The position numbers and the translations under genes are program-made. Positions 8,724 through 12,929 of a stretch of 64,000 bases of DNA are shown piece by piece. Position 1 is the stretch's first letter. Each line of letters starts with the position of its first letter. Under the pieces are notes generated by a model that did no database searches, was not told the origin of the DNA, and saw only the letters and a program-made list of their open reading frames with translations. This stretch comes from a phage. The DNA is taken from the sequence record PX880100.1. The stretch is one strand, 5' to 3'.

Positions 8724-8844
8724 TATACAGGGCCTGGGTATGAAAATACTCGGGCCTTTTCTATCAGAAAATTTTATTTGCCTAATGACCGATAATAAAG
8801 TAGAATATTCCTTAAATCCTGATAACTATAAAAAGGAAAGCCAA

Positions 8845-11175
8845 ATGAGCCATCGCATTGAAAAAGTAATTAAACGTGACGGTACTGTAGAAGACTTTGC
8901 TCCTGAAAAACTCAATGGTTGGGCAGAGTATGGTTGCAAAACAGTTGATGTAAGTTGGTCAGCCATTACTATGGCTGCTCAAAAAACTCTACCTAAAGGG
9001 GTTGTAGATTCCGATACTCTGATGGACGCATTAATTAAGGCTGCCGAAAGTCTTATCAAAGATAACCCAGCATATGATGTGCCCGCAAAGGAATTACGTC
9101 TTGCGCAAATGCGTAAACGTCTTTATGACTCTTTCGAACCGCCTTCTCTGCGCTTCTTCCACGACCATATGGTTAGCGTAGGTGCATGGGAAGACATGAG
9201 TGCATGGATTACCGATGAGCAATTTGAAGCTCTGAATCAGGTTATCGACCATGATCGTGACCGTCTTTTTACTAGTGGTGGACTGAAGCAGTTCTTTGAT
9301 AAGTATTCCCGGCGTAACATAGCCACTGGTGAAATTTATGAAACTCCGCAGTTTGCCTACATGGGTATGGCAATGGCGATGCTATCTCAACCTAACTGGA
9401 CAATTCTAGATGCAATCGACCTCTACAACGCAATGTCACTCCACAAAATCAACGTTCCTACGCCGCCACTGGTTGGTCTGCGCTCTAGTGACCGTGGATT
9501 TGCTAGTTGCTGCCTCGTGGATTCCACTGACACGTTGGATTCAATCGACACCGCCGAGCACATCGTCTTCAAAATGGTCGCAGCCAGAGCGGGAATCGGG
9601 TATCATCTTGAAAGCCGATCAATTGCTGATCCGGTGCGAAATGGGGCATTCCCGCATTCCGGAAAACTGCCATATTATCGACACATTGACCGCTCAGTAA
9701 AGGCTAATACTCAGCAAACTCGTGGTGGTTCTGCTACAGTGTCTTATCCATACTTCGATCCTGAAATCATTCAATTGATGCAGGTTAAGCAACAACGTGC
9801 TACAGATGAGAATAAAATCGATAAGATGGATTATTCTCTGAGCTTCAACAATCTTTTGTTAAAACGTTATCTGAAAAATGAAGATATTACGCTAATGTCA
9901 TACTTCTATGCTCCAGAAGTTCATGAAGCGTTTTATAGTGATGACGAGGCTAAATTTGAAGAAATCTACGTGGCAGCGGAGAAACGTGTGGCATCTCTTA
10001 CAAAGATCGACCACGAAGGAAAAACAGTTCCAGCAGCTCCTAAAGTCTGTGCAAAAGAAATCCTAGATACTTGGCTACGTATCCGAATGGAAACAGGACG
10101 TATGTATGCTCATCACATCGGGGAATCTAATCGTCACGGTAACTTCCTTGATCCGATCCGTATGACAAACCTTTGTGTTGAAATTACTCAGCCTACACGC
10201 CCGTTCCATCATATCACAGAGCTGTATAAGACAAAAGAGCAGCTTGATCAAATGAAGCCGGAGGATATTGGTGAAGTATCTCTGTGTAACTTAGGTGGTG
10301 TTGTACTTGGACGCATGGAATCTCTGGCTGAGTGGGAAAAAACTTGCTACATCCTTCTGAAATTCGTTGATACAATTATTGAAATTCAGGATTATCCATT
10401 CCCAACTATGGAATATACGGCTAAGAAACGTCGTAATGTTGGTATTGGCCTGATGAACGCAGCAGGTGCAATGGCAGCAGAAGGTCTGGCTTATGAAGGT
10501 ATTGAAGCCCGTAACTGGATTCACCGTGAGGCTGAAAAACTGTCTTACTTTCTGCATAAAGCCTCTGTACGCCTAGCTAAAGAACAGGGTGCATGTGAGT
10601 GGTTTGATCGTACTAAACCATCTAAAGGAATTCTGGTAATCGACACTTACAAGAAAACTGTTGATGAACTGGTATCCGTAGGTCTAGAAATGGATTGGGA
10701 GTCTCTGCGTGCAGATATTCTGAAATATGGTATGCGTAACTCTGTTCTGACTGCTCAGATGCCGGGAGAAAGTTCTTCTGTTCTGTTAGGTGTTACTAAC
10801 TCTATTGAACCGCCTCGTAAGATTGTATCTATCAAAGGTAGTGCAGTGAATAAAGTAATTGCAATTGCTCCGGGTGCAACCGATTGGGAAACGTTAATGA
10901 GCTATAAACTGGCTTATGATGTAGATCGTATTGAGTGGATCAAATGGGTAGCAACTATGCAGAAATTCTTCAGTCAGTCTATCAGTACGAATATGTACTA
11001 TGACTACACCAAGTTTGAGAATGAAATCATTCCTGGCCCAGTAGTAGTTCGTGATTTCATGACTGCTGTTAAGTATGGTTGGAAGACTTTCTATTACGCA
11101 AACTTCAACACCGCTAATGGTGGTGGTGCAGGAGAAGAATCCGCAGGCTGCGCTTCTGGTGGTTGTACCATCTAA
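8845..11175 (+). CDS. nrdA: ribonucleoside-diphosphate reductase large subunit (class Ia)
   Basis: ATP-cone-like N-terminus; NLCVEI active-site region; start trimmed to ATG with upstream AAGGAAAG. Confidence 0.9.
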   Translation: MSHRIEKVIKRDGTVEDFAPEKLNGWAEYGCKTVDVSWSAITMAAQKTLPKGVVDSDTLMDALIKAAESLIKDNPAYDVPAKELRLAQMRKRLYDSFEPPSLRFFHDHMVSVGAWEDMSAWITDEQFEALNQVIDHDRDRLFTSGGLKQFFDKYSRRNIATGEIYETPQFAYMGMAMAMLSQPNWTILDAIDLYNAMSLHKINVPTPPLVGLRSSDRGFASCCLVDSTDTLDSIDTAEHIVFKMVAARAGIGYHLESRSIADPVRNGAFPHSGKLPYYRHIDRSVKANTQQTRGGSATVSYPYFDPEIIQLMQVKQQRATDENKIDKMDYSLSFNNLLLKRYLKNEDITLMSYFYAPEVHEAFYSDDEAKFEEIYVAAEKRVASLTKIDHEGKTVPAAPKVCAKEILDTWLRIRMETGRMYAHHIGESNRHGNFLDPIRMTNLCVEITQPTRPFHHITELYKTKEQLDQMKPEDIGEVSLCNLGGVVLGRMESLAEWEKTCYILLKFVDTIIEIQDYPFPTMEYTAKKRRNVGIGLMNAAGAMAAEGLAYEGIEARNWIHREAEKLSYFLHKASVRLAKEQGACEWFDRTKPSKGILVIDTYKKTVDELVSVGLEMDWESLRADILKYGMRNSVLTAQMPGESSSVLLGVTNSIEPPRKIVSIKGSAVNKVIAIAPGATDWETLMSYKLAYDVDRIEWIKWVATMQKFFSQSISTNMYYDYTKFENEIIPGPVVVRDFMTAVKYGWKTFYYANFNTANGGGAGEESAGCASGGCTI

Positions 11176-11234
11176 TATTAACAAGGGGACGTATGTCCCC
11201 TTTATTAGGCCTTTTATGGCTGTAATTTTAAATT

Positions 11235-11717
11235 ATGGAAGAAAAATACAAAGAAATAGCGGGGTTATTTGATTATAATCCAGAAACAGGGATATTTACC
11301 CATAAAGCTAGAGAAGATAAATCCTTCAATACTAGATTTGCTGGCAAAGAGGCTGGTTCTCTAGAAAAATGCTCTGGATATATTGTAATGCAAGTAAAAG
11401 GCACTAAGTATTACGCGCATATCCTAGCATTCCTTATCGTTAATGGGTATATTCCAAAAGAAGTAGATCACGATAATAGAATACGGCATGATAACCGAGC
11501 TATTAATTTAAAGGCCTCTGACAGACACAGTAATGGTAAAAATGTCGGGGCGCACAAAGATAATAAATTAGGTATTAAAAATATTCACCAAAAAGCTAGT
11601 GGATCTTACCAGGTACAGATAGCCCGTAAAGGTGTAAAATATACTAAAACATTCAAAGAACTTGAGGATGCTATAGAGTGGCGCGATATGAAACTATTGG
11701 AGCTTGATAGTTTATAA
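11235..11717 (+). CDS. HNH homing endonuclease with AP2-like DNA-binding domain
   Basis: HNH_3-like HILAFLIVNGY...DHDNRIRHDNRAINL; AP2-like SGSYQVQIARKGVKYTKTF; sits between nrdA and nrdB. Confidence 0.7.
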   Translation: MEEKYKEIAGLFDYNPETGIFTHKAREDKSFNTRFAGKEAGSLEKCSGYIVMQVKGTKYYAHILAFLIVNGYIPKEVDHDNRIRHDNRAINLKASDRHSNGKNVGAHKDNKLGIKNIHQKASGSYQVQIARKGVKYTKTFKELEDAIEWRDMKLLELDSL

Positions 11718-11783
11718 TTTTACTTGCTAATCGCTACCTGATTTGCTATAATATTCCTGAAATAGTGAGAAAGAGGAAAATCA

Positions 11784-12929
11784 ATGACTACTTTACTAAA
11801 CCTGAATTGGGATCATACTAACGCTGATCTTTTCCTGGGCGATTCTCTAGGTATCGCAGATTATGTACGTGTAGCACATCCAGAACTAGAACGTCTGGCA
11901 CTTCTGCAACGCTCTCAATTTTGGACTGAAACTGAAATCAGTCTGGAAGCAGATAAGAAACAATGGCCCAATCTCCCACGTGAAATCCAGGAAATCACAC
12001 TCCTGAACTTAGCATGGCAGACTCAAACAGATTCCTTTATCAGTCGTGCTCCTGAAGCAGCTATTATGCCGCTTGTAAGCCGTCCAGAATTGGAAGGTAT
12101 GCTCAAGCAGTGGAGCTATTTTGAAGACCTGCATAGTCGTGCTTATAGTAATATTATTCGTAATGTGCTGACTGATCCAGCAGAATTTATTGATTCTGTA
12201 ACCAAAAACCAAGAAGCATTCGCACGTATCGCTGATTCTGTTGAGCTGTTCGATGAACTGTACCAGTTAGGTCAGTATTTCATCGCGGTACGTGATCATC
12301 GTGGTGACAATACATATCCAGAAACTGAGTTCCCTGAAGTTAAGCGTGAAACTCAGGCTAAACTGTTAGATGCTTATTTTGCAATCTACGGTCTGGAAGC
12401 AATGCAGTTCTACGCATCCTTTGCATGTACTTTTGCTCTAGCAGAGAACGATATTCTGCAAGGTATTGCTAAAAATCTGCAATTAATCGCTAAAGATGAG
12501 GCTCTGCACACCCAGATGTCTAAAACAATCATCCAGATTATGTTCCAGCAGTTTGACAAAGATCTGGTAGATGAAGCAGTGGCTAAAGCACCAGCACAGC
12601 TCCTGAAAACTCTAAAAACTGAGATTGAATGGGGTCATTTCATTTTCAAAGGTCGTAGTCTGATTGGTTTGAATGCAGAACTTCTAGAAGAATACTTGTA
12701 CTTTGTGGGGCGTAATGCATTTATGCACATTGGTGTAGAATGGCCTAGTCACTTACCAGTAATCACTAAAAACCCTATTCCGTGGATCATGAACTGGTTG
12801 GATACTACTTCTCTACAGCCTGCTCCACAAGAAATCCAGATTGGTGCAGCCTACCGTGTAGGTCAGGTAACTGAGACCTCTACTGATACTCTGGAAGATC
12901 TGGGCAATGAATTTGGAGATTTCCTATGA
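11784..12929 (+). CDS. nrdB: ribonucleoside-diphosphate reductase small subunit
   Basis: 381 aa, ferritin-like R2 protein with EDEALHT iron-ligand region. Confidence 0.85.
   Translation: MTTLLNLNWDHTNADLFLGDSLGIADYVRVAHPELERLALLQRSQFWTETEISLEADKKQWPNLPREIQEITLLNLAWQTQTDSFISRAPEAAIMPLVSRPELEGMLKQWSYFEDLHSRAYSNIIRNVLTDPAEFIDSVTKNQEAFARIADSVELFDELYQLGQYFIAVRDHRGDNTYPETEFPEVKRETQAKLLDAYFAIYGLEAMQFYASFACTFALAENDILQGIAKNLQLIAKDEALHTQMSKTIIQIMFQQFDKDLVDEAVAKAPAQLLKTLKTEIEWGHFIFKGRSLIGLNAELLEEYLYFVGRNAFMHIGVEWPSHLPVITKNPIPWIMNWLDTTSLQPAPQEIQIGAAYRVGQVTETSTDTLEDLGNEFGDFL

Follow-up and report, generated by a model that had tools for sequence, protein, structure and literature searches.

A probable free-standing HNH_3/AP2 homing endonuclease gene in the nrdA-nrdB spacer of a T5-like phage

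We analysed a stretch of phage DNA of 64,000 nucleotides (sequence record PX880100.1; hereafter the window), in which an open reading frame (ORF) of 160 amino acids with an ATG start (11235-11717, + strand, in the ORF list of the window) lies between the genes for the two subunits of RNR. Upstream is nrdA, which encodes the 811-aa large subunit of a class Ia RNR (8740-11175, + strand; Pfam Ribonuc_red_lgC, E 1e-118), and the downstream flank is nrdB, which encodes the 381-aa small subunit (11784-12929, + strand; Pfam Ribonuc_red_sm, E 3.7e-36). The ORF is a gene of its own in an intergenic position, between the nrdA stop codon (11175) and the nrdB promoter (11724), with no host intron or intein around it. 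By megablast, the locus belongs to T5-like phages (Demerecviridae, Markadamsvirinae); it is matched best by two Salmonella phages of the genus Tequintavirus, FGS017 and Kenya-K44. The encoded protein is 100% identical to FGS017 XHH62893.1, annotated as 'HNH endonuclease'. No paralogue of the gene was found in the window when all six-frame ORFs were searched by tblastn and with a family HMM.

The original prediction had placed a free-standing HNH gene with an AP2 domain in this spacer, and both elements of it are borne out. The ORF product matches Pfam HNH_3 (PF13392) with 35.9 bits (E 5.6e-9, residues 59-100), above the curated gathering cutoff of 24.8 bits, and PHROG_99 'HNH endonuclease' with an E of 3.9e-49. 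The N-terminal residues 1-58 (11235-11408, + strand) form a β-sheet module that is presumed to bind DNA as in I-HmuI. This is followed by the HNH (ββα-metal) catalytic motif at residues 59-103 (11409-11543, + strand), in which D78-H79, N87, N91, N100 and N103 are all present (the histidine codon is at 11469-11471). Across an alignment of 47 homologues the columns D78, H79, N91, L92, N100 and N103 are invariant, and the HNH residues align with the catalytic motif of I-HmuI, VVDHKDGNKDNN..NLRWVTQKINVEN (VVDH...N...N). The ββα-metal fold of HNH_3 and I-HmuI-like His-Me finger endonucleases is present, and the PF13392 score together with the catalytic residues places the protein in that group. The nearest solved structure is that of I-HmuI, deposited as an HNH homing endonuclease.

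A short linker, assigned with lower confidence, leads from the HNH motif to a C-terminal AP2-like DNA-binding domain of three strands and a helix (residues 113-159; 11571-11711, + strand). Pfam AP2 did not match the single window sequence even at E<=10, and the assignment relied on a family profile, built from the window protein and 8 homologues, and on the predicted structure. The C-terminal 50 positions of this profile match the AP2 domains of WRI1 (E 5.7e-5) and TEM1 (E 5.5e-4), and its central part matches the homing endonuclease I-HmuI (E 1.4e-4). Many of the 6372 homologues found with the profile had already been annotated with both PF00847 and PF13392. Profile, homologues and predicted structure all point to the C-terminal AP2 domain that is typical of HNH-AP2 homing endonucleases. 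The dN/dS of the gene against diverged alleles is about 0.05 over a dS of about 1, so that the ORF is not a chance one and the protein has been kept functional.

In HNH-less relatives the spacer is 106-107 bp long and runs from the nrdA stop codon through a terminator hairpin, the nrdB promoter and the 5′ UTR to the nrdB ATG; in the window it is 608 bp long. The hairpin of the empty allele, GGAGATC-TTCG-GGTCTCC followed by T5 (TTTTT), corresponds in the window to a G+C-rich terminator-like stem-loop of nrdA, AAGGGGAC-GTAT-GTCCCCTT followed by TATT (11183-11202, + strand; sequence, fold and scan). This hairpin is allele-specific, with the empty, EPS7-type, S124-type and window alleles each having a different one; its structure is therefore conserved while its sequence has been replaced. 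In an alignment with the HNH-less Kenya-K37, homology ends after AACAAGG and restarts at AATTTTACTTGCTA, overlapping the HNH stop codon, which delimits an allele-specific segment of about 529 bp (11187-11715, + strand). This cassette, in the order hairpin (11183-11202), 32-nt leader and ORF, stands in place of about 27 bp found in the empty spacer and lengthens it by 502 bp. Since homology restarts at the stop codon, the nrdB promoter (11724-11752, + strand; 10/12 matches in the promoter scan) comes downstream of the HNH gene. It reads TTGCTA-17 nt-TATAAT, has an upstream TG and is common to the empty alleles (TTGCTA-17-TATAAT).

We found no sigma-70-like promoter site between the nrdA stop codon and the HNH ATG (11176-11234) in the promoter scan, and reading of the sequence revealed no visible Shine-Dalgarno motif in the same interval; the annotation of T5 places a promoter between nrdA and hegH, the HNH gene of that phage. 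The HNH ORF of the window is preceded by the hairpin at 11183-11202, in a position between nrdA and nrdB that is also that of mobE in T4, and nrdA probably supplies the transcript that reads into it.

The ORF is bracketed by an 8-bp direct repeat, TAATTTTA (left copy 11223-11230, right copy 11715-11722, + strand; sequence reading). Only one AATTTTA stands at the junction of the empty allele, and the repeat is kept in EPS7-type alleles and not in S124-type alleles. It may be the footprint of the original insertion, or may have arisen by chance in AT-rich DNA. The insertion splits TTTGA from AATTTTAC, and TTTGAAATTTTAC, intact in all other alleles, is therefore a candidate target. Free-standing endonucleases often cut away from their own insertion site.

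The empty spacer is strongly conserved. In most of 440 records its identity is >=99%, far above that of nearby synonymous sites, and it shows 0/106 differences between K37 and LmqsSP1, whose flanks are 3-4% apart. One example (locus L002, 3477-3582) equals positions 11176-11186 plus 11716-11783 of the window. This conservation presumably reflects constraint on the spacer as terminator, promoter and 5′ UTR, or homogenization by recombination.

The earlier proposal was that presence or absence of the gene among relatives would mark mobility, and it called for a comparison of nrdA-nrdB spacers across T5-like phages. We made that comparison: the gene is absent from most relatives and far from universal. 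The flanks match 446 phage records, and the HNH gene is found in only 48. As fractions of about 440 T5-like GenBank records, 11% (48) carry the window-type gene, 57% (249/440, queried with the empty spacer) cover the empty 106-bp spacer end to end, and the remaining ~32% carry one of three other HNH_3 types, all of these counts being inflated by GenBank/RefSeq duplicates and shared ancestry. Among 27 loci from IMG/VR and the GenBank loci taken together, 15 were empty, and the others held the window type, a diverged form of it (S124, H8 and phC17) or one of the three other types.

The carrier FGS017 and the empty Kenya-K37 illustrate how little else need differ. Their last 600 nt of nrdA contain 8 differences, 2 of them silent and located in the final two codons, and the first 154 nt of nrdB are identical, the first difference being at +155. 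A gene present in 48 records and missing from 249, with near-identical flanks in such a pair, upholds the expectation of mobility. Judged by span, 47 of the 48 carriers have a full-length ORF. Carriers of the window type span about 1600 bp for a query of 1601 bp, the exception being Salmonella phage SB6, in which part of the HNH cassette is duplicated in tandem (locus L003, 3533-3859; spacer 902 bp): the first 90 codons, then a leader that is read through, then a complete second copy. In Escherichia phage H8 (locus L026, AC171169) the HNH copy is disrupted, and an additional G close to the beginning of nrdB shifts its reading frame. Because the adjacent nrdB is also frameshifted, we suspect sequencing errors in a draft record rather than decay.

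Spacers occupied otherwise hold further HNH genes, all encoding HNH_3 proteins. In T5 itself the neighbouring sub-site is occupied by a different gene, hegH (T5.095, putative H-N-H endonuclease P-TflVIII), whose 174-aa product shares 36% identity with that of the window gene. For a third type (AKFV33 ORF96 and SE11) the figure is 45%, and for a fourth (IrmaTschudi and S116) 38%. The hegH, AKFV33 and IrmaTschudi types are inserted about 45 bp further to the right, immediately after the -10 box of the nrdB promoter (directly following TATAATAT); they bring a Shine-Dalgarno motif and end at the nrdB ATG. Being downstream of the nrdB promoter and having their own Shine-Dalgarno, they are therefore co-transcribed with nrdB and do not follow nrdA. 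We ruled out that the window gene is an orthologue of T5 hegH/P-TflVIII, given the identity of 36% and the other sub-site, upstream as against downstream of the nrdB promoter. The label 'F-TflVI' of the EPS7 copy was likewise set aside as evidence of orthology or activity, as it is an annotation label only.

By tblastn, the hegH type was found in 75 records, the third type in 36 and the fourth in 34; together with the 48 of the window type these make 193, in agreement with the 191 records that lack an intact spacer. A span check of the 48 carriers revealed none with both a window-type insert and an insert at the second sub-site, since all of them span about 1600 bp (SB6 excepted, where the duplication is of its own gene). 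If inserts were independent, about 17 doubles would be expected, a figure that ignores shared ancestry and duplicate records. We tentatively suggest that the nrdA-nrdB spacer might be a contested landing pad, on which at least four diverged HNH-AP2 lineages compete through two mutually exclusive insertion points about 45 bp apart; co-conversion might erase the rival sub-site and so bring about the exclusion, and intragenic recombination might generate new specificities. We regard this as a possibility that is rather less probable than not. If true, the contested spacer would be a natural and easily handled system for the study of competition between homing endonucleases.

The divergence of the gene does not follow that of its neighbours. 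Between the window and FGS017, dS is 0.02 for the HNH gene, 0.13 for nrdA and 0.25 for nrdB; between the window and SUT_E1520, NBEco001 or FFH_1, dS is about 1.0 for the HNH gene and 0.15-0.26 for the flanks. Among the window, FGS017 and K44, the 608-bp spacer has 4-7 differences (0.7-1.2%), and the flanks have 59-107 in the 2436 nt of nrdA and 53-61 in the 1146 nt of nrdB (2.4-5.3%). These values suggest that the HNH gene and its flanks have had separate histories. The spacer is nearly invariant in the empty alleles too, and part of the local conservation is presumably functional constraint on terminator and promoter. Low divergence near the site is thus not by itself a signature of co-conversion, because the empty spacer is conserved too. 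Pairwise comparisons of the flanks gave no evident co-conversion gradient around the insertion.

The gene itself shows signs of recombination. From about position 11463 onward the window allele is 97.3% identical to that of S124, and before that point only 66%; against EPS7 it is 84% identical throughout. On these identities, the allele shared by the window, FGS017 and K44 is an intragenic recombinant, with an HNH-motif and AP2 half like that of S124 and an N-terminal half like that of EPS7. The phC17 allele shows the reciprocal kind of mosaic. The surroundings are mosaic as well. For the 25 kb to the right of the locus (14001-39000), the closest relatives are not FGS017 but TUMS_E3 and AKFV33 (97.4%), the latter a carrier of the third type, and the same 25 kb is 95.6% identical to S131, whose spacer is empty; the window genome thus reads as a mosaic of Tequintavirus backbones. 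Downstream identity falls abruptly in several pairs. A table of flank identities over 31 loci was replaced by targeted pairwise comparisons, as the region proved too mosaic and some nrdA genes contained inteins.

The end of nrdA is variable in its own right. The last ~12 codons (window 11140-11175) are a mismatch hotspot between relatives, whatever the state of the spacer: the final 200 nt differ at 18-27 positions, compared with about 5 in other stretches of that length. These codons specify the C-terminal tail with its CxxxxC motif and a terminal pair of residues that is TI, QL, NL or TL. The nrdA of the window (8740-11175) contains no intein, unlike nrdA at two of the compared loci, which have one or two in-frame inserts of ~300-340 aa (L022, 1005-1916; L019, 499-1359 and 1873-2886). 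Their junctions are intein-like, TQQ/CYSEDTE...VCGN/SRGG after residue 326 and NLC/VAPETKIL...LAGN/CVEITQ after residue ~480. With these inserts and the HNH genes between nrdA and nrdB, it is therefore several kinds of mobile element that strike the RNR genes of T5-like phages.

Several observations together argue for homing: the gene is patchily distributed within conserved flanks, its catalytic residues are intact, purifying selection acts on it, and its history seems decoupled from theirs. We consider it likely that the window gene encodes a homing endonuclease, is of the free-standing kind, belongs to the HNH_3/AP2 family and is active or recently was. Its place in this T5-like (Tequintavirus) phage is bounded by the terminator hairpin of nrdA on one side and the promoter of nrdB on the other. 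Transcripts running on from nrdA would give the gene low-level expression, the route documented for T4 mobE; we infer this because no promoter signals were found and because of the mobE precedent. The protein, as a monomer, would bind DNA through its I-HmuI-like N-terminal sheet and its C-terminal AP2 domain, and its single HNH site would nick or cut the genome of a co-infecting T5-like phage without the gene, within the spacer between nrdA and nrdB or close to it. Given the single HNH site and the resemblance to I-HmuI, nicking would be expected rather than double-strand cutting; I-HmuI is a nickase. Recombinational repair templated by the carrier genome would then transfer the gene and part of its surroundings to the genome that was cut.

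The gene might instead be a passive cassette, shuffled among T5-like phages by ordinary homologous recombination in the highly conserved spacer and the RNR genes beside it, with the nuclease not driving its spread. The spacer and flanks are conserved enough for easy exchange, the whole region is mosaic with evident intragenic recombination between alleles, and ordinary phage mosaicism could give the same patchy pattern. Shuffling of this kind leaves unexplained, however, why four HNH_3 lineages and nothing else occupy the spacer, and why the gene is under strong purifying selection with its catalytic residues intact; we hold it to be improbable. Alternatively, the nuclease could have been domesticated, and be kept because it benefits the phage, for instance by destroying or shutting out rival T5-like genomes or by controlling RNR expression through the AP2 domain, rather than being purely selfish. 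A dN/dS of about 0.05 over a dS of about 1 does speak of long-term maintenance, and exclusion of related phages mediated by homing endonuclease genes (HEGs) is documented in T-even phages. A gene carried by only ~11% of relatives, with 57% empty, is nevertheless dispensable; it has no conserved partner gene, and a benefit from exclusion would have largely the same mechanism as homing. We therefore give domestication a somewhat smaller chance still. Least credible, and very unlikely in our judgement, is that the gene is a decaying relic, an inactive former homing endonuclease held in place by linkage to the essential RNR genes, like I-TevIII in T4: the HEG life cycle does predict relics, the H8 copy is disrupted, that of SB6 is partly duplicated and the ORF has no obvious translation signals, but 47/48 carriers have it at full length by span, the catalytic D-H...N...N is invariant, dN/dS is about 0.05, and the nrdB frameshift in the H8 record suggests sequencing errors. 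A role of the gene in the genomic nicks of T5 was set aside, as only ~11% of relatives carry it.

Homing therefore remains our preferred reading, and for the window itself the outcome is a correctly guessed, already annotated and, on this reading, ordinary selfish element. The wider interest lies in the spacer, which is empty in 57% of records, holds the window type in 11% and three other types in ~32%, at two sub-sites and never at both, and in an HNH endonuclease that is under strong purifying selection yet apparently decoupled in its history from its flanks. The nrdA-nrdB spacer of T5-like phages could serve as a compact natural system for homing, marker exclusion and endonuclease competition. 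T5-like phages are widely isolated for biocontrol, and a dispensable insertion marks the spacer as a safe site for engineering.

Among known systems, the closest are the copies in other T5-like phages. FGS017 (XHH62893.1), Kenya-K44 (K44_082), EPS7 (AGC_0108), phiR2-01 (g086) and FFH_1 share the insertion point and architecture of the window, with amino acid identities to the window protein from 100% (FGS017) down to 90-92% (EPS7 group). The Kenya-K44 and phiR2-01 copies are annotated as homing endonucleases, and those of FGS017, EPS7 and FFH_1 as HNH endonucleases, the EPS7 label being 'H-N-H endonuclease F-TflVI'. The types of T5 hegH, AKFV33 ORF96 and IrmaTschudi/S116 resemble the window gene in belonging to the HNH_3 family (165-174 aa), in lying in the nrdA-nrdB spacer and in varying in presence among relatives; they differ in the other sub-site and in an identity of only 36-45%. 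Niu et al. (2012) had already recognized the gene between nrdA and nrdB of AKFV33 as that of a homing endonuclease, a counterpart of T5 P-TflVIII, and drew the parallel with mobE (PMC3326045).

That parallel, made also in the original prediction, holds for position: T4 mobE is a free-standing HNH gene between nrdA and nrdB, and the window gene, for which the scan gave no promoter-like site, lies in the same place. T4 mobE is promoterless, is co-transcribed with nrdA, is mobile in crosses and nicks nrdB of T2 (PMC2790892). MobE, however, belongs to PF01844, with an N-terminal HNH motif and no AP2 domain, as against PF13392 for the window gene, and the family of its host phage is unrelated to T5-like phages. 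Homology to T4 MobE was rejected (BLASTP E 1.8; PF01844 versus PF13392), in line with the independent acquisition that had been proposed, and from these protein comparisons the shared position is to be read as convergence and not as common descent. I-HmuI of Bacillus phage SPO1 (PDB 1u3e) is 16% identical to the window protein and differs in being intron-encoded and in having a helical C-terminal part of the helix-turn-helix type instead of AP2.

The class to which the window gene conforms is that of the HNH-AP2 homing endonucleases, which have an N-terminal HNH and a C-terminal AP2 domain, are phage-borne and often lie near RNR, polymerase or terminase genes (PMC10448857); the family is that of reference 45 of Barth et al. 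(PMC10448857). The association of this class with RNR genes is established (PMC10448857). The IPA-HNH domains of ICP1 are reported to be too divergent for the HNH_3 profile, in contrast to the window protein, a canonical HNH_3 member whose AP2 domain is the part that falls below the Pfam threshold. The gene and its kind are already known, and what is added here is a description at the level of the population.
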